Shown here piece after piece: positions 4,580-41,252 of a DNA stretch of 57,381 bases. Position numbers and translations under genes: made by a program. Source of the stretch: a virus (lineage: Duplodnaviria > Caudoviricetes); IMG/VR virus record IMGVR_UViG_3300032435_000013, positions 1-57,381 of that record; one strand, 5' to 3'. The notes below the pieces were generated by a model. It did no database searches. It saw nothing but the letters and a program-made list of their open reading frames with translations, and was not told the origin of the DNA. Positions within the stretch are counted from its first letter, which is position 1. Every line of letters begins with the position of its first letter.

Positions 4580-4831
4580 ATGACTGATGATTTAAAAATA
4601 GAAGACCAATATATAAAAGGGTACCAAACCATTGATGGTAAACAAGTACCTGTTATTAAATGTCCAACAACAATAACTGTTAGAAATAAAACTACAGGGG
4701 CTGTGTATGCATCCGAAGAAGAAGCATTAGCAGATGTAGCTAATCCTGACACTACTACGAAACAAGAGGACATCGCTAAAGATGTTGCTGTTACAGTTGC
4801 ACATTTAAGTTTATTTGGCGAAACCAGGTAA
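4580..4831 (+). CDS. Hypothetical protein (start corrected to MTDDLKIE)
   Basis: ATG at 4580; the upstream extension in the ORF track overlaps the basic peptide. Confidence 0.7.
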   Translation: MTDDLKIEDQYIKGYQTIDGKQVPVIKCPTTITVRNKTTGAVYASEEEALADVANPDTTTKQEDIAKDVAVTVAHLSLFGETR

Positions 4832-4834
4832 AGT

Positions 4835-5767
4835 ATGGAACCTAGAGGCGGCACGGAACTCCAGTTCGAGTTCATGCGTAAACGGGTTGATGCTAAGTTA
4901 TTAGATAACTTTCAAATCTGTACATCTATTCCTGGTAAAGTTCCATTAGATCCAAAGAAGATTAATATTCTTTGGCAAAAGAATTCCTACGACCAACCTA
5001 ACTTACAAGAGTTCTTTGGTAATCCAGAACGACATAAAGAATACGATTGGTATGTATTTAACTCTCATTGGAATTACGAAAAGTTTAGATACTATTTTAA
5101 GATCCCAGAAGAACGATGCATGGTTATTAAAAACGGCTGTACTAGTTTTCCAACCTTTAAACCTTATCAAAAAGGTGACCCCATTAAATTAATTTATCAC
5201 CCTACTCCATGGAGAGGCTTGAACGTGATTCTTGCTGCGATGCAATTGATCAAAGACCCCCTGATCACGTTAGATGTGTATAGTAGCTGTGATGTGTATG
5301 GCTCTGCTTTTAAGAAAGCAAATGATCATCAATATACAGAGTTATATCAACAAGCAAAAGAATTAAAGAATGTACATTATATCGGTTATAAACCCAATGA
5401 ATATATATTAGAGCATATGCAAGATTACCAAATATTTGCATACCCTAATATCTGGGAAGAAACATTTTGTATCTCGGCACTAGAAGCCATGGCAGCGGGT
5501 CTACATGTGGTGACCACGAATCACGGGGCTTTATATGAAACTTGTTCTGAGTGGCCTGTGTATGTTAATTATGTACAAGACTACAAATCCCTTGCGCAAT
5601 CTTTTGCCTATGCTATAGAATCAGCAGCAGCTTATTTACATGAAACCCATATCCAAAAGCACCTACAAGAACAACAAAAATTTTATCAACGATTTTATAA
5701 TTGGGATAAGAAAGCCCATGAATGGACTGGCTTCCTTACAGGTGCTTTAGATGCAAGACGCAAGTAA
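4835..5767 (+). CDS. Glycosyltransferase, GT4 / GT-B fold
   Basis: PRGGTE N-terminus; EETFCISALEAMAAG (EX7E) motif. Confidence 0.9.
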   Translation: MEPRGGTELQFEFMRKRVDAKLLDNFQICTSIPGKVPLDPKKINILWQKNSYDQPNLQEFFGNPERHKEYDWYVFNSHWNYEKFRYYFKIPEERCMVIKNGCTSFPTFKPYQKGDPIKLIYHPTPWRGLNVILAAMQLIKDPLITLDVYSSCDVYGSAFKKANDHQYTELYQQAKELKNVHYIGYKPNEYILEHMQDYQIFAYPNIWEETFCISALEAMAAGLHVVTTNHGALYETCSEWPVYVNYVQDYKSLAQSFAYAIESAAAYLHETHIQKHLQEQQKFYQRFYNWDKKAHEWTGFLTGALDARRK

Positions 5768-14103: not shown

Positions 14104-14814
14104 ATGAAAATAATTAGAAATGATAGCAGCTTCACCATCACAGACTTTAGATGGGATCATAAATATTCTTATGTCCCTTATGAACGGGACGACACTCACG
14201 GCCCACGGACCTATGCGGTAGGAGAAAAGAAAGTCCCCTCCGTAACCACCATATTATCAGCCACTCAATCAGCAGAGAAGACAAAGACCCTAGATGCTTG
14301 GAGAGAACGAGTAGGCTACCAAGAAGCTCAAGCCATTACCACTCAGGCCTCCAATAGAGGCACGGAGATGCACTTTGTTTTAGAAAACTATATCAATGGT
14401 CGCGGGTACTTGAATCTATCAAAAGAAGGGGCTCAGGCTCGTTTAATGGCACATACCATCATACAGAATTTACCAGAGTTAAAGATTGTATACGGAAGTG
14501 AAGTGAACCTAGCTTATGAGGGTCAATGGGCAGGATCCACGGATCTCGTGGCTCTATACAAAGGAGAGCCTACTATTATAGATTTTAAACAGTCTAATCG
14601 TTTTAAGAAGAGAGAGTATGTAGAAGACTACCACTACCAGATAGCAGCTTATGCCCTTGCTCATAAAAAAGTATATGGGCCGATCACGAGAGGCCTCATA
14701 GCCATCTGTACTAAGGACATAGAGTTTCAGTCTTTTGAACTGGATGAAAATATTCTTAAAGAATATGAGGATAGGTGGTTTTCAAGAGTCGAAAAGTATT
14801 ATAAACTTCCTTAA
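14104..14814 (+). CDS. PD-(D/E)XK exonuclease (MGME1/Cas4-like phage nuclease)
   Basis: PSVTTIL, RGTEMH, AGSTD, IIDFKQS and QIAAY motifs. Confidence 0.9.
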   Translation: MKIIRNDSSFTITDFRWDHKYSYVPYERDDTHGPRTYAVGEKKVPSVTTILSATQSAEKTKTLDAWRERVGYQEAQAITTQASNRGTEMHFVLENYINGRGYLNLSKEGAQARLMAHTIIQNLPELKIVYGSEVNLAYEGQWAGSTDLVALYKGEPTIIDFKQSNRFKKREYVEDYHYQIAAYALAHKKVYGPITRGLIAICTKDIEFQSFELDENILKEYEDRWFSRVEKYYKLP

Positions 14815-15353
14815 TGAAGGAAGGTTTATTAGTGCATAAGCATTTGATTGTAAGAGCGGAAGCTATCCGTCCTCCTATGGACGAAGCATATCTAACAGAA
14901 TGGTTAAACGATTTTATTACATCTATTAACATGAAAGTGTTAATGGGTCCTTATGTAATCTATCATAACGTTCCAGGTAATCGTGGAATTACAGGAGCAG
15001 CTATTATTGAAACGTCTCACATTGTAATGCATGTTTGGGATGAACCGTCTCCAGCACTAATGCAGTTTGATGTATACTCTTGTGGAGAGTTTGATCCTGA
15101 AGTGATCTGTAAAAAAATTACAAAAGATTTTGATGTTACTAAAATAGAATATAAATTTTTAAATAGAGAAACAGGTCTACAAGATATTGGTGGAGCTTAT
15201 TTAAAACCTTCTAAAAGCCAAGTAGATAAAATATTATTTAACAATAGAAAAGAAGTGGACATCAATGCTAATGGGTCTGGATACACTATTAAGGCTGGAT
15301 CTAATAAAGGAAAAACATTGGGTCACATACAAGCTCTAACTAAAAAAATATGA
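14814..15353 (+). CDS. speD: Pyruvoyl-dependent S-adenosylmethionine decarboxylase-family proenzyme (auxiliary metabolic gene)
   Basis: HLIV, GITG, IETSHIVMHVW (autocleavage Ser) and DVYSCG motifs. Confidence 0.88.
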   Translation: MKEGLLVHKHLIVRAEAIRPPMDEAYLTEWLNDFITSINMKVLMGPYVIYHNVPGNRGITGAAIIETSHIVMHVWDEPSPALMQFDVYSCGEFDPEVICKKITKDFDVTKIEYKFLNRETGLQDIGGAYLKPSKSQVDKILFNNRKEVDINANGSGYTIKAGSNKGKTLGHIQALTKKI

Positions 15354-30400: not shown

Positions 30401-30733
30401 ACATCAGTTTCTAATACATCTATGACTTCATCACTTGCTAAACCATTATCGCCAATGACGAGGTTTACTGCTTCTCTTATTTCTTCTACTGTGTATGTTT
30501 TCATTATTTTTATCCTTTCGTTTTGTTGTTTATGCTTCGTTTATGTTAGTGATTTGAAAATGATCTCTATCAACAATTTCATCATTCACAAAATCGCCAC
30601 TTTCAACAATCTTTGTCGCTTCCTCTAAAGAATTTGCTTCAATTTTTACTTTTGAAGTACATTCTTCAATAAAAGTTATTTCATATATTTTCATTTTATT
30701 TATCCTCCCTTTTAAATTTAGCCATTTTACCAC
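27443..30733 (-). other. Early-gene block I: about 15-20 tightly packed small leftward hypothetical ORFs (27443-27649, 27642-27851, 27957-28241, 28213-28410, 28401-28592, 29029-29379, 29313-29501, 29820-29951, 29944-30168, 30165-30356, 30530-30733 and further <60-aa ORFs)
   Basis: Overlapping start/stop codons and AGGAGG/GAAAGG RBSs on the minus strand. Confidence 0.75.
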
Positions 30734-31044
30734 TCCCTTCTTGCGTCAGGTTTTATATGAATGACATCACCTACAATTTTGCCCTCATATAATTTATTAT
30801 AGAGATAAGTAGCTTGAAGATTAACTATTTTATTTTTTAGTAAACCTTCCTCATCAACTAGCAAACAACCATCCTCTTTTAAATTTACTACCTCAACATA
30901 ACCACCAACAAACGCTTGTGCTTCCTTCAGCGTTGGCTCATTACCTTCATATACTTTGATTTTAGTTAACAGCCCCATTCTAGCTAATCTTTCCATATCA
31001 ACCTTAACTGTTTCTGAACTCATTGGTTTTTTATTTGTTTTCAT
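30727..31044 (-). CDS. DUF3846-like protein (start corrected to MKTNKKP)
   Basis: LKEAQAFVGGYVEVV, VDEEGLLK, N..AT, IVGDVI; GAAAGGA RBS. Confidence 0.8.
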   Translation of the reverse strand: MKTNKKPMSSETVKVDMERLARMGLLTKIKVYEGNEPTLKEAQAFVGGYVEVVNLKEDGCLLVDEEGLLKNKIVNLQATYLYNKLYEGKIVGDVIHIKPDARREW

Positions 31045-31098
31045 TTTGTTTCCTTTCGTTTGTTTTATTAGCTTAGAATAAGTGTAATTGAAGACTGT

Positions 31099-31123
31099 GG
31101 CACGATTAAGGCAACATTGTGGC
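31099..31123 (-). promoter_or_regulatory. Triple GCC direct repeat with 11-bp period upstream of early block I
   Basis: GGC on + at 31099, 31110 and 31121. Confidence 0.6.
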
Positions 31124-31137
31124 TTTTGTGTGATTTG

Positions 31138-31938
31138 GAATAAGTCATTGATTTTAAAGGATAAAAACTTATCCACACAACTTGGGGTTGTAAGTAACTT
31201 ATTTTGTTCTCGTGAGTCGTGCCTCTGAGAAAACATAACTCACGAGAGTAGAAAGGGCAGTCATTTATGCAAATGAATGTAGAATAATAATAAGGTATTA
31301 GGGTGCATATGTCAAATGTTATTTTAGGCTATACAACTGTTGCGTGAATTTATGGCATATTGTGTGAACGGGATAAGAACGATACAAGAACATTGGTTTT
31401 TGGGGTGTGGGTAAAGTTTCGGGTATCACGGATCACGGATCACGGGTTTTCCTAGTTTTCCTAGTTTGCTGGGAAAATTCCCAGAAGTTTCCTAGTTTTT
31501 TTAAAAAAGTAGGACAAATAAGTTATTGATTTTAAAGCGTTTTCCTAGTTTTTCCTGAAACTACCCCCTATAAGGCACTTCCTTAGAAACTTTTTTTAAA
31601 AAAGATGAAATCCTAGATTTAAGACACATTGTCGCAGTTTCATGAATAAGTCATTGATTTTAAAGGATAAAAGAGCATTTTCAAAGTAGGAAAATACTAG
31701 GAAAATTCCTAGTATTTCAGGAAAGTGTTGATTAGCAAGGGTCATTTAGGTGTGACACTTTGTCAACTCTGGGAAAACATAGGTAAATCAACAGTTATTT
31801 ATTGTAACAATTAGTAATATTTAGTGTAAGGGGCTTTAATCAACAGTTATTTAATCTCTTACTTCGGCAAATATACAAAAATAAAAAATATTTTTTTAAT
31901 TTCTATAGATTGCCTATAAAACTAGGAAACTAGGAAAA
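31138..31938. other. Putative replication origin / packaging control region
   Basis: Non-coding. Perfect DnaA box TTATCCACA at 31169-31177; IHF-consensus sites at 31141, 31519, 31647; 29-bp direct repeat 31138-31166/31644-31672; many TTTCCTAG/CTAGGAAA iterons; TCACGG(A) x3 at 31426-31446. Confidence 0.65.
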
Positions 31939-35534: not shown

Positions 35535-36847
35535 TGTCCACCCCCTTAACAATATCAATAATAAATTTAAAATTTCTTAAATCATAATAAAACTTTGTCT
35601 GTGATTTCCAAAGTTTATCCCGCAAATCATTTTTACAAAATCTAATCGCTTCAATTTCATTAGACCCCCTTGATTGCATGGCAATCAGTCCCGCACCATT
35701 AAAAGCCACGCACTCGTATAGCTGTTTATTCATTGTTACAACCTCACCCTAATTCTTTTGGCTAGTTTTTTATCTTTCATATTGTTCAAAATATCTTTGA
35801 TTAGATATTTTCTAGCTATAGAAGTTATCGGATTAATAAAATTTAAGTCATTATGATTTTTTGAAATTTCTTTCATTTCTTCTATTTGAATGGAAGTTCC
35901 AAAATTAAAAGCAATTAACATACCATTGGAAGTATGGAAATTGGTATCTGTATTACCCTCTAAAGTTTTTAAAAAGGGTTCAAAATACTTTTTGTTATTT
36001 ATGTTTAATGTAGTCATTTTTTATTTTCCTTTATGTTTTATGTCGTCAGTATATCCGCCCTCAAAATAATTCCAAGAAAAACATTTTGGGCATAGAATTT
36101 GATTGCTTTTTAGGTCTGCGTCTTTGTAGTTGTCGTTTTCTGCCCACATAAACCCTTTATGTCCGCAACTATCACAATAAAGTTTTTTATCATTTCTTAT
36201 ATATTCAAATTCTTTTTTATTAATATTATATATATTTGGCGATAAAACCCCCCTAATAAAATTTGATGCTTGAATTGGTTTGCTAGTCATTTTTTATTTT
36301 CCTTTCCTTTATTGTTTATTAAGCAACCTCTTTTTGTTTAATTGTCAAAATATAATTTCCTAAATCAATTTGCTTTTTTTCATAATCAAGTTCAGCATTT
36401 TTAAATTTAGTAAAATCAATATTTTTATATTGTGTATTTTGCATTATTGCGTCCCACACAGATTCAATAATTTTTACATCTTTTTTCATTTGTTTTTTTC
36501 CTTTCGTTTGTTTATTATTTTAAATTAATAATTGCTTGGTTATATCCAATAATAAAACCTAACATTTCTTCTTTGCTGTTAAATCTTTTAATGTCTCTGC
36601 AGTATTGGCTATATCCATTATTAATTGAATATTTATTAAAACAAACGCCTTTGTTTTTTATTTCTTCGCTTGTAATATTATTATATCCATATTTTAAAAG
36701 ATTTTTTGTAAATTCAGCACATTGGTTCGCATGAAAATACTTATTATCACCTTTTAAAACTACATTAATATTTTGTTTATTTTTTTTAAACTCAATGTCA
36801 TTTTGTTTTTGGTATTGGTTTGTTTTTGCTTCTTGTTGTGTGTGCAT
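35527..36847 (-). other. Leftward early ORFs 35527-35733, 35736-36017, 36021-36290 (CxxC...CxxC zinc ribbon), 36515-36847
   Basis: ORF track plus RBSs. Confidence 0.7.
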
Positions 36848-36904
36848 ATTATTTTACCCCTTTGTTGTTAAATTAAATGAGATTAAGTTATAAAAAAACA
36901 TTAT

Positions 36905-36920
36905 GGCGAAAACAAGGCAA
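36905..36920 (-). promoter_or_regulatory. TTGCC-N6-TCGCC direct-repeat site upstream of the leftward early operon
   Basis: Reverse complement TTGCCTTGTTTTCGCC. Confidence 0.55.
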
Positions 36921-36978
36921 ATAAAGAAATAATATAAAAAAATTAAGTTGTTGATTTTTAATAAATCTTTTTTGTTCT

Positions 36979-37024
36979 GTGCCTTAATTCTGCCGTATTT
37001 ATATATTAATTAATAAGACATAAA
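36979..37024 (+). promoter_or_regulatory. Cassette promoter 1 (GTGCCT-17-TATATT); 36980-37024 is identical to 38472-38516
   Basis: Direct comparison; sigma70 spacing. Confidence 0.75.
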
Positions 37025-37044
37025 CTTAACAAAGGACAAAAAAA

Positions 37045-37995
37045 ATGAGTGCATTAAGTAAAATAACAAAGGACGCTCTGACAGTTTTAAAAAATAAGAT
37101 TGTTGAAGGGCTAAAAAATGACGGCCTAAAATGGTTCAAATCATTTAAGGGTATTGGTTCGCCCGCAAATGCTTTAACTCAAAAAAATTATAAAGGCATT
37201 AATTTTTGGGCTTTGGGTATTAATAAAAAAGAAAACAACTACGCCACTATTTACTACGCTACAAAAAAAGCGTGGCAGTCAGTAGGTGCTACAATTAAAG
37301 ACGGTCAAAGCCAAAATGGTACGGCGGTTTTTTATTACGGCGTTTTCAAAAAGTCTGTAAAAAATAATAAAAACGAAGACAAAGACAAGCAATTTTCATT
37401 TTTAAAAATTAGTTATGTTTATAACTATGAACAAATGAATTTTGAAAATTCAACTTATACGCTACCACCTAAAAAAGAAAATCAAGTCATTGATATAACA
37501 GAAATTGAAAGCTTTGTTAAAAATATCAAAGACCTTGATTTAAGACACTCAAACGAGGGTCGCTGTTATTATAGCCCTTTGTTAAATTATGTCCATATGA
37601 CAGAAAAAACGGGCTTTATAAATGTCGCTGATAAATCAGCGTCTTTTAATTATTACAGCGTTTTATTTCATGAACTTAGCCATTGGACTGGTCATAAATC
37701 GAGAACGGCTCGATTTGAAAAAAATGTTAAATATTTTAAGGATGATGTTCAGTTAGAGTATGCACTCGAGGAATTGGTTGCTGAAATATCTGCCAATATG
37801 CTTTGTATGCATTTTGGCCTTGATAAGACAATCAATCAAAATTCCATTGCTTATCTTAAAAGTTGGATATCACGCCTTGAAAATGACGATAAATTTTTAC
37901 TAAAGGCACTATCTCAAAGTGCTGGTGCTAGCACCTATTTATTAGAAAACAGCACCGCAACGCTTCAAAGCGTACCAGTTTTAAAGGTTGCTTAA
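37045..37995 (+). CDS. ardC: ArdC-family antirestriction protein (ssDNA-binding domain + zincin-like metallopeptidase)
   Basis: P.N..T...YKGIN, T.K.W...GA.I; YYSP..NYVHM, FHELSHWTGH..R, YALEELVAE, AYLKSW. Confidence 0.92.
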   Translation: MSALSKITKDALTVLKNKIVEGLKNDGLKWFKSFKGIGSPANALTQKNYKGINFWALGINKKENNYATIYYATKKAWQSVGATIKDGQSQNGTAVFYYGVFKKSVKNNKNEDKDKQFSFLKISYVYNYEQMNFENSTYTLPPKKENQVIDITEIESFVKNIKDLDLRHSNEGRCYYSPLLNYVHMTEKTGFINVADKSASFNYYSVLFHELSHWTGHKSRTARFEKNVKYFKDDVQLEYALEELVAEISANMLCMHFGLDKTINQNSIAYLKSWISRLENDDKFLLKALSQSAGASTYLLENSTATLQSVPVLKVA

Positions 37996-38005
37996 TAATC
38001 AAGCG

Positions 38006-38076
38006 TAATTAAAAGCGGGCTTAAAACGCCCGCTTTTTTTAGGTTATAACTTGCCTTAATTCTGCCGTATTTATAT
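38006..38076 (+). repeat. 71-bp terminator+promoter module, copy A (identical to 38426-38496)
   Basis: AAAAGCGGGC-TTAAAAC-GCCCGCTTTTTTT, then TTGCCT-17-TATGCT. Confidence 0.95.
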
Positions 38077-38121
38077 GCTTATGTATTAAATATGTTAAAC
38101 AACTTAAACAAAGGGCAAAAA

Positions 38122-38412
38122 ATGACTGAAGAAAAAATACTAAAAACAGAAATAGAAAAAACAGTAAAAAATATCTTTAAATATATTGGATATCTTAAAG
38201 ACAAAGATTGTACTGATATTAATCTTTTTAAATCTGTTTTAAATTCTAAATTATGGGACTTGGCCTCACATCAGGCCAAAAATTTTGACTTGGTTAATCA
38301 AGTTTTATTAGAAAAAAATCTTGTTATTAATGAGCAAGGCAAGGTTGAAGAATACGACCCAAAAAAACACGCTTTGTTGTACAATAATTATAAATCTTAT
38401 TCTTTAGCATAA
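38122..38412 (+). CDS. Hypothetical cassette gene 2 (start corrected to MTEEK)
   Basis: AAACAAAGGGCAAAAAATG leader matching the other cassettes. Confidence 0.8.
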   Translation: MTEEKILKTEIEKTVKNIFKYIGYLKDKDCTDINLFKSVLNSKLWDLASHQAKNFDLVNQVLLEKNLVINEQGKVEEYDPKKHALLYNNYKSYSLA

Positions 38413-38425
38413 ATCAATAAATATT

Positions 38426-38496
38426 TAATTAAAAGCGGGCTTAAAACGCCCGCTTTTTTTAGGTTATAACTTGCCTTAATTCTGCCGTATTTATAT
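38426..38496 (+). repeat. 71-bp terminator+promoter module, copy B
   Basis: Identical to 38006-38076; promoter TTGCCT-17-TATATT. Confidence 0.95.
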
Positions 38497-38537
38497 ATTA
38501 ATTAATAAGACATAAAATGAACAAAGGACAAAAAAAA

Positions 38538-38825
38538 ATGTTAACAAAAAAACACTTTAAGGAATTAACAAAAATTCACGCTAAGGCCTTAAAAGCAATA
38601 AAGGACAACGATCCAAAAACTGCATATAATATTTTTGAGTTTGGATTGCGGGATTTTTATCAATCCATTAATGTAAATTTTGATGATCTCAAATTTGAGA
38701 AGCGTACTCAAAAATTAGCCAATACTAAGCCCGCTAAACTTGTTGAAAGCAACGATTTAACGGGATTTGATGCAATTGACCATTTAGAGCGTAGAGAGCT
38801 TTTAGATGCTCAAATGAATAATTAA
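38538..38825 (+). CDS. Hypothetical cassette gene 3 (start corrected to MLTKKHF)
   Basis: AACAAAGGACAAAAAAAAATG leader as for ardC; TKKHF...N.NFD..KF motif. Confidence 0.8.
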   Translation: MLTKKHFKELTKIHAKALKAIKDNDPKTAYNIFEFGLRDFYQSINVNFDDLKFEKRTQKLANTKPAKLVESNDLTGFDAIDHLERRELLDAQMNN

Positions 38826-38840
38826 AAACTTAAAATAATT

Positions 38841-38875
38841 TAATTAAAAGCGGGCTTAAAACGCCCGCTTTTTTT
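38841..38875 (+). terminator. Third identical terminator copy closing the cassette array
   Basis: 35 bp identical to 38006-38040 and 38426-38460. Confidence 0.92.
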
Positions 38876-38921
38876 GTGTCCGTTGACTTGATAAATACAC
38901 GCTTAAATTGTATTGATAAGC

Positions 38922-39323
38922 ATGGCAAAAAACAAAGAATCTCTATTGTTTAAGAGAATTAAAACAGCATTAAAAACCGCCTACCTATTAAGAATTGAGA
39001 CATCAACGGTCAAAGGCGTAGCTGATGTTTTTTGTATTTATAAACGCTGTTCTTTTTGGGTTGAATTAAAAGCAAACGACAGCAAGAATTTACAGCTAGG
39101 CGGGTTTCAATTGAATTGGCACGACACCATCAATAAACACGGCGGTCACTCGTTTATCTTAGTAAAGACCATCGGGCAACGAGGTCTTAAAATCTACAGC
39201 GTTGAGGGTAGAGGCGTGAAGTTTTTACACCAATACACCGACACGGCGGGCGGGTTGGTTGAAGCGTTCCAATTCATGCAAGGCCACACCCTCGGGCTTC
39301 AAGGTCATAATATAAAAACCTAG
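38922..39323 (+). CDS. VRR-NUC-like nuclease / resolvase
   Basis: ES.L, RIE....GVADV, FWVELK, Q..WH motifs. Confidence 0.8.
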   Translation: MAKNKESLLFKRIKTALKTAYLLRIETSTVKGVADVFCIYKRCSFWVELKANDSKNLQLGGFQLNWHDTINKHGGHSFILVKTIGQRGLKIYSVEGRGVKFLHQYTDTAGGLVEAFQFMQGHTLGLQGHNIKT

Positions 39324-39328
39324 TGAAT

Positions 39329-39486
39329 TGATTATCACTAGCGATAATCATTACTTATCACTAGGGATAATCTCGCACAATCTAACATACCCACGAGGGT
39401 AGAGGCGTGACCCTTGAGGCCTGAGCCACGAGCCGAAGCTCTAAGGGTCATTTGAGGGTTGACCTTATGTTTGCCTTATTTCTGCC
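39329..39486. promoter_or_regulatory. Palindrome/repeat cluster upstream of terL
   Basis: Two TTATCACTAGNGATAA palindromes, a 16-bp direct repeat, a hairpin and an ACC/GCC/GCC 11-bp-period repeat. Confidence 0.55.
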
Positions 39487-39569
39487 ACAATTGACCCCTA
39501 TTTTTTTTTATTTTTTTTTACAGAGTGTACTTGAGCAGGATTCATAAACGCAGTAAGGTAGAATAAACT

Positions 39570-41066
39570 ATGGTTTTAGAAAAAAAGGGGCCCATCCAAA
39601 AAGACCTATTATCCACTGATCAATTAAGACTTGAGGTGGAAAAAAAACTCATTGAGCATATTAAACTTTGCCAAGATAATTTTTTATATTTTGTTCAAGA
39701 GGTCTGGCCTGATTTTATTTGTAGAAAAGAAAAGGACCCAAATAAATGGGGGCACCATCAAATCATGGCTAAAGAGTTTACTCGTATATCTGATCAGAGA
39801 AAAGGGAGGCTTATTGTGAATATGCCACCTAGGCACACTAAAAGCGAATTTGCTTCTGTGTTCTACCCAGCATGGATGATTGGAAGGAACCCTAAATTAA
39901 AAATTATGCAGGTAACGCACAATGCCGAACTATCTGCTAGATTTGGTTCTAAGGTTCGTAACTTAATTGACTCTAGAGAATATAAACAAATTTTTGGAGA
40001 TGTCCGTTTACGACAAGACTCTAAAGCAAAGGGACGTTGGGAAACAAATCATGGTGGTGAATATTTTGCTGCTGGTGTAGGAGGCGCAATCACAGGGCGT
40101 GGTGCGGATTTGTTAATCATTGACGATCCACATACCGAACAAGATTCTTTATCTCGTAATGCTATGGAGAGATGTTATGATTGGTATGCATCAGGACCCA
40201 GACAACGTTTACAACCTGGAGGCTCTATTGTTTTAGTTATGACGAGATGGGCAGAGAATGATTTAACGGGGACCCTCATTAGAAATCAGAAGGAAGAAAA
40301 AGCAGACAAGTGGAAGTTAATTTCTTTTCCTGCAATCTTAGAATCAGGGAACCCTTTGTGGCCAGAATTTTGGGAGAAATCTGAATTAGAAAAAGTCAAA
40401 GCATCGTTACCCATTCGTAACTGGTCTGCACAGTATATGCAGAACCCCACTTCAGAAGAAGGAGCTATCATCAAAAGAGACTGGTGGAGACCTTGGAAAA
40501 AAGATGTACCCGCATTACAGCATGTTATACAAAGTTACGATACCGCATTCAGTGCAAAAGAGACTGCCGACTATTCTGCTATTACTACGTGGGGGGTATT
40601 CTATCCTCAAGAAGGCGGGGCGGCTAATCTTATGTTGTTAGATGCAATGAAAGGTAAATATGATTTTCCTGAATTAAAAAATCTGGCATTTGATCAATAT
40701 AAATTTTGGGAACCTGAATCTGTAATCATTGAGGCTAAAGCATCAGGAGAACCGTTGATGCAAGAATTTAGAAGAATGGGAATACCAGTAATACCTTTTG
40801 TTCCTAGTAAAGGAAAAGATAAACATACTAGAGTTAATGCTACTGCACCCTTATTTGAATCAGGGTCCATATGGTATCCAGAAGGAGAACGCTTTGCAGA
40901 TGAGGTTATTGAGGAATGTGCTGCCTTTCCTCATGGTCAATATGATGACTATGTTGATAGTACTACCCAAGCCGTGTTAAGATACAGGCAAGGTAACTTC
41001 TTTGATGTAAGCTCCGACTACAAGGACAACTCAAATAAGTACAAAAAAGAATATAAATACTATTAA
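39570..41066 (+). CDS. terL: Terminase large subunit
   Basis: MPPRHTKSE, IIDDPH, MTRW, YMQNP, SYDTA, DYSA, DDYVDS motifs. Confidence 0.95.
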   Translation: MVLEKKGPIQKDLLSTDQLRLEVEKKLIEHIKLCQDNFLYFVQEVWPDFICRKEKDPNKWGHHQIMAKEFTRISDQRKGRLIVNMPPRHTKSEFASVFYPAWMIGRNPKLKIMQVTHNAELSARFGSKVRNLIDSREYKQIFGDVRLRQDSKAKGRWETNHGGEYFAAGVGGAITGRGADLLIIDDPHTEQDSLSRNAMERCYDWYASGPRQRLQPGGSIVLVMTRWAENDLTGTLIRNQKEEKADKWKLISFPAILESGNPLWPEFWEKSELEKVKASLPIRNWSAQYMQNPTSEEGAIIKRDWWRPWKKDVPALQHVIQSYDTAFSAKETADYSAITTWGVFYPQEGGAANLMLLDAMKGKYDFPELKNLAFDQYKFWEPESVIIEAKASGEPLMQEFRRMGIPVIPFVPSKGKDKHTRVNATAPLFESGSIWYPEGERFADEVIEECAAFPHGQYDDYVDSTTQAVLRYRQGNFFDVSSDYKDNSNKYKKEYKYY

Positions 41067-41075
41067 GGAAAACTT

Positions 41076-41252
41076 ATGACAACAAAAATAAACTCAAAGA
41101 TTTTAAAAGAATGGAAAAGAGAAAAAGATCTAGGTTATGACGGAACGGTAGAGGATTACTTTGAAGAATTTTACGGACCTATAGATGATTTTAAGAAGGA
41201 CGGTGGAATAGTAAGCGGCAAAGGATCAGACTACATTAAAGATCTTTTATAA
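41076..41252 (+). CDS. Small protein (58 aa) ending KDGGIVSGKGSDYIKDLL
   Basis: Manual translation; AAGGA RBS; TAATG-coupled. Confidence 0.75.
   Translation: MTTKINSKILKEWKREKDLGYDGTVEDYFEEFYGPIDDFKKDGGIVSGKGSDYIKDLL

Follow-up and report, generated by a model that had tools for sequence, protein, structure and literature searches.

The virus record IMGVR_UViG_3300032435_000013 is a single contig of 57,381 bases, taken whole and called the window below (estimated CheckV completeness 95%). Between positions 36,979 and 38,875 it carries three genes, ardC and two that we call B and C, each preceded by the same promoter-like core and followed by the same terminator-like hairpin. How does a phage come to repeat its expression signals so exactly around unrelated genes, and what happens to the genes that lie between the repeats? 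An earlier sequence-only reading had proposed an integron-like platform of anti-defence cassettes that recombine through these repeats. Our analysis indicates that the region is probably a hyperplastic array shuffled by homologous recombination, moron-like and resembling the repeated promoter/stem-loop cassettes (PeSLs) of T4-like phages, in a phage that is not of the T4 type.

The 25-nucleotide (nt) promoter-like core, TGCCTTAATTCTGCCGTATTTATAT, occurs three times, at 36980, 38052 and 38472; no further copy with up to three mismatches was found in the 57,381 bases, and 100 shuffles gave no match. The 27-nt hairpin, AAAAGCGGGCTTAAAACGCCCGCTTTT, also occurs three times (38011, 38431 and 38846), and none is expected by chance. 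A repeat finder showed that the two terminator-promoter junctions, 38006-38076 and 38426-38496, are identical at 71 of 71 positions. The promoter and leader at 36980-37024 match those at 38472-38516 at 45 of 45 positions, and the 35-mer of the terminator recurs at 38841-38875. Identity within the genome extends to the 11-nt spacer AGGTTATAACT and to the promoter spacer. The repeats of 71, 45 and 35 bp that had been reported were all found in place, as were the near-identical leaders, in which AAAGGA or AAAGGG stands 8-9 nt 5' of each ATG. The genes themselves share nothing, as had also been claimed, and all-against-all BLASTP clustered neither B with C nor either of them with ardC. The array is thus well described, in the terms of the earlier reading, as a row of single-gene units, each made of a predicted promoter, an open reading frame (ORF) and a predicted terminator:

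36848-36978, no strand: left anchor, the divergent intergenic region between a leftward gene block (ending at 36847) and the array, from the ORF map
36979-37007, plus strand: predicted promoter copy A, core 36980-37004, hexamers GTGCCT-17-TATATT placed by register with copy C
37008-37044, plus strand: leader A, with a Shine-Dalgarno-like AAAGGA, 97% identical to leader C over the 66-nt family D1
37045-37995, plus strand: ardC, 316 amino acids (aa), PF08401 and PF18818, phrog_7245
38006-38040, plus strand: predicted terminator 1, hairpin 38011-38037 and then a T run
38051-38079, plus strand: predicted promoter copy B, TTGCCT-17-TATGCT, with its own leader up to 38121
38122-38412, plus strand: gene B, 96 aa, no Pfam or PHROG family
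38426-38460, plus strand: predicted terminator 2, the same hairpin, terminator-like in the consensus scan
38471-38499, plus strand: predicted promoter copy C, TTGCCT-17-TATATT, 9/12, with a leader up to 38537
38538-38825, plus strand: gene C, 95 aa, no known family; the ORF of contig L002 starts at the equivalent Met
38841-38875, plus strand: predicted terminator 3, the right end of the array, the same hairpin, terminator-like in the consensus scan
38876-39323, plus strand: right anchor, a conserved promoter-like stretch (TTGACTTGATA...) and a 133-aa gene at 38922-39323, followed by terL at 39570-41066

Relatives of the array were collected with its terminator. The 35-mer retrieved three viral contigs (L001, L002 and L003) and its 30-nt core retrieved 24 metagenome contigs, in all of which the core is identical by construction of the search. 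These 24 contigs were oriented and scanned for both motifs and for ORFs, and the ORFs were clustered. The exact 25-mer found no viral contig, and a version with two degenerate positions returned the same three only; ArdC-based and B-based scans of the viral contigs added none to them. We define the slot as the interval between the divergent promoter region and the conserved 133-aa gene upstream of terL. In the three viral contigs the same 133-aa gene and terL lie downstream of the slot, and ardC is followed by a B homolog in L001, by C in L002 and by a 136-aa protein, D, in L003. The 133-aa gene comes after the last terminator in every contig that extends that far, and the sequence directly 5' of it is conserved. 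In L088, L107 and L109 this gene seems to start with GTG and not ATG; it was cut to 58 aa there because the ORF call admitted ATG only. Among the metagenome contigs with both anchors, plus L109 (which has the 3' end of ardC only), and in the window, the content between ardC and the 133-aa gene is as follows, with additions from partial contigs in the last line:

B and C: the window
C: L090, L098 and L099
B: L088, L092, L094, L107, L109 and L111
D: L091 and L096
f36 and f21: L102
Partial contigs: f21 (L095); B and f23 (L110); f25 (L089); f41/f42 before B (L108)

A further contig, L103, runs from the 3' end of ardC through f37, a shortened C (C'), f38 and B to f39, with five terminators within 1,844 bp. 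The genes between module copies recovered by the terminator-core search fall into about 15 families across the relatives, and all of these except ardC are without known function. The roughly 14 others are B, C, D, f14, f19, f21, f23, f25, f36-f39 and f41/f42; f22 (L101 and L105) seems to be a spurious hydrophobic ORF and was left out of the count. The relatives therefore vary in slot content and do not hold the window's three genes in a fixed order, the opposite of the finding that would have counted against the earlier reading. The description of the array as led by ardC is correct for the window, but f14 (L089 and L094) or f19 (L093 and L097) lies upstream of ardC in 4 of the 24 metagenome contigs.

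The variation among relatives follows the pattern that recombination between modules predicts. By blastn, L099 aligns to window positions 36486-38122 and then to 38426-41200, so that it equals the window minus exactly 420 bases, the B unit, and a 110-nt stretch of it fits both window junctions. The flanking DNA of the two is 95.6-98.8% identical, and their ArdC and TerL proteins are about 100% identical. This difference is exactly the 420-bp unit that the sequence-only reading had marked off between its repeat copies A and B; as a sequence, the L099 form may be either an excision product or a pre-insertion form. Contig L093 is 100% identical to the window over 196 nt, comprising the left anchor, promoter and leader, then continues with f19, a terminator and a promoter, and then returns to ardC at 98.8% identity. 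In L103 the B unit matches window 38006-38537 at 98.3% identity but stands among other neighbours, and in L108 f42 is followed by a terminator, then a promoter and then the beginning of B (99.2% identity). The breakpoints in L099, L093 and L103/L108 thus look like the products expected from crossovers inside the module.

Repeats that exceed common k-mer sizes confuse short-read assemblers, and the repeated modules could in principle be a product of assembly or collapse. We regard this as hardly credible, as the modules occur in 24 metagenome and 3 viral contigs assembled independently and as read depth agrees with the window. The population data were Logan contigs per run, for which contig depth is poor for ranking genes. 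In run X1, the likely source sample, the 66-nt terminator-promoter piece has a depth of 1953, compared with 864-977 for the unique flanks; this roughly twofold depth fits two junction copies per genome. Logan contigs end at the repeat edges, and loose ends that lead into other sequence lie at 37047, 38401, 38515 and 38630, in X1 as elsewhere, the X1 loose end at 38515 having a depth of 147 against about 850-890. In run X5 the depths were 13.5 for B, 46.9 for ardC, 35.2 for C and 81.5 for the 133-aa gene, differences that faintly suggest mixed populations.

These data are consistent with the following mechanism. An accessory-gene slot, hyperplastic in content, would head the rightward transcription unit. 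Each unit in it would consist of a promoter for the host RNA polymerase, a short leader with a ribosome-binding site, an ORF and a strong intrinsic terminator, and the terminator of one unit together with the next promoter core would form a composite module of about 71 nt, near-identical at every junction. The module would have two jobs. It would insulate small, probably early genes and block read-through into the packaging and virion genes, and it would serve as portable homology for homologous recombination or template switching. Whole units could in this way be deleted, inserted, duplicated or exchanged, within a genome or between co-infecting relatives. As to the enzymology, we infer that host RecA, some phage protein, or template switching during replication would be responsible.

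The modules might instead be only regulatory DNA kept alike by selection for expression or by gene conversion, with the genes turning over by illegitimate recombination or through other homologies and the repeats not serving as crossover sites. The terminator core is unchanged between clades in which ardC and B have a synonymous divergence (dS) of about 0.9-1.5, and a terminator that stays the same while genes reach a dS of about 1 indicates selection on function. Some exchanges also seem to break in the 3' ends of ORFs, to judge from an 18-aa tail common to C, D and f25 and from a remnant, YKNQFQKTA, that follows f37 and f38 and also ends f42. However, the 11-nt spacer and the promoter spacer are identical without having an obvious function, and the 420-bp difference of L099 and the f19 insertion of L093 are bounded exactly by module copies. 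We therefore consider this explanation unlikely, and homologous recombination through the modules remains the reading we prefer.

A site-specific, integron-like system, in which the hairpin would be an attC-like site for an unrecognised recombinase of phage or host, is suggested by the form of the array, since its single-gene cassettes each end in a conserved imperfect palindrome and up to five stand in a row (L103). No tyrosine recombinase (PF00589) was matched in the genome, which is an estimated 95% complete, whereas 14 of 14 controls were positive; no serine recombinase (PF00239) was matched either, and the control genomes were again positive. The array is in this sense integrase-free, as had been claimed. 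Every cassette also has its own predicted promoter, the junction homology of 71-111 nt extends far past the hairpin, and the hairpin, a simple G+C stem before a T run, is of the intrinsic-terminator type. Cassettes that have predicted promoters of their own and lack an integrase do not make an integron, and the term integron-like used for this locus, which has no attC, can be kept only as a loose analogy. A site-specific system is accordingly very improbable, and the shuffled array stands as the better account.

Do the repeated elements act as promoters and terminators? All three hairpins were terminator-like in the consensus scan, with 10 pairs (6 of them G-C) and a T run after the stem, and the RNA hairpin has a folding energy of -16 kcal/mol (z = -3.3). 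In relatives, variant terminators keep their stem by two-sided change (GCGGGC/GCCCGC to GCGGGT/ACCCGC). A search of Rfam gave no family at the gathering score, and its 13 weak matches all fell below it, most of them overlapping the terminator hairpins. Against the sigma-70 consensus, copy C scores 9/12 and was listed by the scan; copies A and B score 8/12, under the scan threshold. The sequence that the earlier reading took for a sigma-70-type promoter is present in three core copies, and its match to the consensus is modest. The cores sit 40-45 nt before each ATG, directly after the terminator in the cases of B and C, and this position argues for a putative promoter. In the PHROG scans of 29 window ORFs no RNA polymerase was found (a 789-aa ORF lies outside these scans), and host-type promoters are therefore to be expected.

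The best argument for a promoter role comes from the sister clade, whose ArdC is about 86% and TerL 93% identical to that of the window. There, an unrelated module, P2, stands in front of B, f21, f23, f25 and f36; it has TTGTAA-16-TATTAA and a GAGG ribosome-binding site, and it is repeated at successive junctions in L102 and L110. P2 and the window's class, P1, share only sigma-70-like hexamers and their spacing. Gene B is found behind either class, from which it follows that promoters and genes recombine independently.

The 25-nt core may, on a different view, be the binding site of a phage protein, such as a transcription regulator or the small terminase, and not, or not only, a sigma-70 promoter. 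It contains TGCC-N7-TGCC, with half-sites 11 nt apart, and related copies lie at 39472, upstream of terL, and at 31099 on the minus strand, while the site upstream of terL in locus L008 consists of four TGCCACA-like repeats in 11-nt phasing. P2, however, occupies the same position in the sister clade with sigma-70-like hexamers at the correct spacing and no TGCC motif. We judge this view to be distinctly unlikely; promoter function is the common ground of P1 and P2, and the promoter and binding-site readings are compatible. The two further copies match the motif TTGCCTTA(A/T)T..TGCCACA. That at 39472-39489 (plus strand) lacks a -10 hexamer and lies some 80 nt ahead of terL, and that at 31099-31116 (minus strand) stands about 40 nt before an ATG at 31043 with a similar AAAGGA leader. 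Chance matches to TGCC-N7-TGCC were estimated at about 0.3 per genome, and these sites may be candidate binding sites for a regulator or packaging protein. The annotated ORF around the minus-strand copy (30727-31236, 169 aa) has a PHROG match that covers residues 99-159 only; because of this partial match and of the promoter-like motif and ribosome-binding site inside the frame, the gene is probably shorter and starts at 31043. Between the 133-aa gene and terL, at 39327-39372, there are two tandem 23-nt palindromic operator-like copies, ATTGATTATCACTAGCGATAATC and ATTACTTATCACTAGGGATAATC, followed by a G+C-rich stretch that is atypical for the genome.

Several points weigh against the shuffled-array reading. 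Promoter and terminator activity are predictions from consensus and position, with a promoter match of 8-9 of 12, and the scanned genome segment holds 30 promoter-like sites compared with a shuffle mean of 33.7, which is no excess. Searches of the genome for an annealing protein gave no match to ERF or RecT and only a weak P-loop match to AAA_24. Long direct repeats upstream of terL, of the kind that form the junctions, were absent from the 8 loci checked among L009-L086. All relatives are short-read contigs, in which assemblers can mis-thread identical repeats of 71-111 nt, and the order of units is therefore insecure in L103, L093, L108 and the window itself. L103 could be a chimera of strains, and its apparent reversal of B and C is insecure. 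The content differences of the more diverged clade are firmer, because its junctions differ from one another where a variant terminator is present (L096, L094 and L102; types T, T' and T''). L111 has two identical terminator copies, with a shared repeat of only about 35 nt.

How widely the array is distributed was addressed with a TerL-profile scan, which gave 80 loci. In tblastn with nine proteins of the window and the loci, ArdC, B, C and D turned up in the three viral contigs named above and nowhere else, being absent from all 78 of the TerL-relative loci L009-L086. Together with the 8 checked relatives that lack junction repeats, this indicates a feature of one sublineage and not of the whole phage type. 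A DNA search of named phage records with the array region gave no match.

The identification of ardC was confirmed. The protein matches PF08401 (ArdcN; 3.7e-15, 56.7 bits, cut-off 22.6) and PF18818 (MPTase-PolyVal; 1.3e-26, 93.6 bits, cut-off 27.5), as well as the anti-restriction family phrog_7245 (1.5e-51). Residues 19-304 align to the solved ArdC structures 6sna and 6i89 (E 3e-32), with HELSH aligned to HEATH (HExxH). The ratio of nonsynonymous to synonymous divergence (dN/dS) of ardC against its relatives is 0.02-0.14. By BLAST clustering, 16 ORFs among the 24 metagenome contigs belong to the ardC cluster, and 2 more contigs hold only the 3' end. ardC is the only cassette with a recognisable predicted function, anti-restriction. 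In HTVC011P, a T7-like Pelagibacter phage, the ArdC homolog, gp02, occupies 559-1545 of the linear record, a position that offers an analogy for ardC as a possible early gene.

Genes B and C appear to be genuine but rare. Between clades, ardC and B have a dS of 0.9-1.5, near saturation, and a dN/dS of 0.06-0.28; the individual values are 0.11-0.28 for B and 0.22-0.23 for C, and these low values indicate that B and C are real genes under purifying selection. The start of B was placed at 38122 and not at 38092 because homologs that follow a different leader begin at the equivalent Met. Homologs of B are scarce, with 15 clusters in 5.8 billion proteins and, by profile search, 6 representatives in 1.84 billion. 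One of the six, 258 aa long, resembles B at its C-terminus and has no Pfam family; another, a repetitive protein of 651 aa, was judged spurious. For C there are 8 clusters only. Neither protein matched a Pfam or PHROG family, and a PDB sequence search and the protein atlas gave nothing usable for either; the best PDB sequence match, the poxvirus A46 protein (E 0.017), was judged to be due to chance. With isoelectric points of 7.8 and 8.9, B and C are not strongly acidic and so carry no sign of DNA mimicry. Ten further cassette proteins had no Pfam match, and f42, one of the ten, matched a PHROG of unknown function.

The ends of several cassette genes deserve separate mention. C, D and a truncated f25, otherwise unrelated, all end in IDHLERRxLLDAQMN (window 38769-38825; L003 1663-1719, minus strand; L089 about 2190-2220), and BLASTP of C against D found a single shared stretch of 18 aa at 83% identity. 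This tail is either a functional peptide or a crossover point within the 3' ends of the ORFs. The 3' coding end of f42, YKNQFQKTA-stop (L108 935-965), is also found behind f37 and f38, outside the called frames (L103 about 375-410 and 1030-1065), and runs X4 and X19 show identical letters in a loose end ahead of 38419. Such copies may be remnants of replaced cassettes. The C' of L103 differs from C by an in-frame deletion of 90 bp (window 38714-38803), which leaves a product of 65 aa, and the corresponding joint of 38713 to 38804 was found in X4 and X19.

For B, C and the other cassette genes, the pointer to an anti-defence role is solely their position beside ardC. The cassettes other than ardC are lineage-restricted genes under purifying selection, plausibly early host-takeover or counter-defence genes, and the slot marks about 14 small protein families beside an anti-restriction gene as candidates for such roles. 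A bolder reading, which we offer tentatively and do not favour, is that the slot may be a dedicated, recombinase-free exchanger of counter-defence cassettes in an abundant lake phage lineage. The module would then be a portable adaptor, providing any small gene that is captured with a landing site as well as early expression; the roughly 14 families would be a pool of new anti-defence or host-takeover proteins passed around among co-infecting strains, and ardC would be a resident.

The setting of the array is that of a phage related to viruses of SAR11 bacteria. TerL (39570-41066) shares 76.6% identity with its counterpart in Pelagibacter phage HTVC023P, and by sequence the genome is classed as HTVC023P-type. 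The runs that contain the region are labelled freshwater and salt-lake metagenomes. PHROG scans of the genome identified an exonuclease, helicases, a primase, a DNA polymerase and virion proteins; the biggest ORFs are the 789-aa ORF, a 709-aa protein without a match, a virion protein and the DNA polymerase. In the ORF map, the gene block left of 36847 is leftward and a long rightward unit begins with ardC, continuing through the array, the 133-aa gene (phrog_2165, 3.6e-13), terL (phrog_38, 1.8e-112) and the 789-aa ORF to the virion genes. In the cultured relative HTVC023P (L087), seven small, widely spaced hypothetical genes separate terS from terL. The tandem repeats there, at 2236-2334 and 4685-4856 (33 nt x3 and about 58 nt x3), differ from the window module, and the 133-aa gene of the window is 42% identical to HTVC023P gp25 and not to the annotated terS. 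Elsewhere in the window, the ORF at 14814-15353, which adjoins a PD-(D/E)XK-type exonuclease (phrog_298) at 14104-14814, may be an auxiliary metabolic gene, as it matches phrog_3125 (S-adenosylmethionine decarboxylase; 2.7e-18). The main text of the HTVC023P-type genome paper (PMC9599517) does not mention ArdC, antirestriction, hypervariable regions, promoters or terminators.

Among known systems, the plasmid R388 ArdC (6i89 and 6sna) has the ArdcN and zincin-like metallopeptidase domains in common with the window protein, including the HExxH motif; the window ardC differs from it in being phage-borne and in heading a cassette array. The array resembles those of integrons in its tandem single-gene cassettes, its variable content and the palindromic element at each cassette end, but it has no integrase or attC, its cassettes have predicted promoters of their own and not a shared Pc, and its long junction homology includes the promoter-like core. 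Phage morons are self-contained units of promoter, gene and terminator that stand between conserved lambdoid-phage genes, usually as single insertions whose flanks are unrelated. Like morons, the units of the array have their own predicted promoter and terminator, lie between conserved anchors and are present in some relatives and absent from others. Unlike morons, they are flanked by the same module throughout.

The closest match is to the PeSLs of T4-like phages, which the sequence-only reading had itself named. As Arbiol et al. (2010; PMC2839356) describe them for phages phi1 and RB49, PeSLs are repeats of about 100 bp with a sigma-70-like early promoter and a stem-loop terminator, which mostly precede genes of unknown function in hyperplastic regions and bound insertions and deletions between close relatives. 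The authors propose that PeSLs halt early transcription before it can spill over into the virion genes, and also that mini-circles arise from them; for the exchange of units in T4-type phages they use the term PeSL-mediated modular shuffling. Comeau et al. (2014; PMC4122927) extended PeSLs to other T4-like phages. Such shuffling is on record for T4-like phages and related large myoviruses. A literature search on PeSLs identified, by title or the start of the abstract, no paper on a podovirus or pelagiphage; its titles concern T4-like phages, other myoviruses (a giant Vibrio myophage, jumbo phages and vB_EcoM-UFV13) and a cyanophage.

Compared with PeSLs as described there, the array has a similar composite of a stem-loop and, by prediction, a sigma-70-like promoter; the motif is conserved over about 70-100 bp and is placed in variable regions, among small genes whose function is unknown. 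Where close relatives differ by an insertion, deletion or replacement, the change is likewise bounded by the motifs, with the short-read caveat that applies to the array. The same two roles, a stop to transcription and homology for shuffling, can be proposed for both. The differences are of host and layout. The array belongs to an HTVC023P-type phage of 57 kb and not to a T4-type myovirus, and it fills one compact slot with back-to-back single-gene units, whereas PeSLs number about 50 motifs over several regions. Its terminator lies wholly upstream of the promoter, whereas PeSLs show five stem-loop placements, mostly within or overlapping the promoter. Its copies are perfectly identical within the genome, and sister clades use two unrelated promoter classes, P1 and P2.

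At the level of sequence, the array thus appears to possess every feature described for PeSLs, in a phage that is not T4-like. Its form is unusually clean, with identical junctions, single-gene units and many natural variants, and its module could supply natural parts, short promoters and terminators, for use in AT-rich alphaproteobacterial hosts. The occurrence of PeSL-like logic in an unrelated phage with a small genome would suggest that composite modules of this kind are a general, convergent means by which lytic phages maintain fast-turnover accessory genes.

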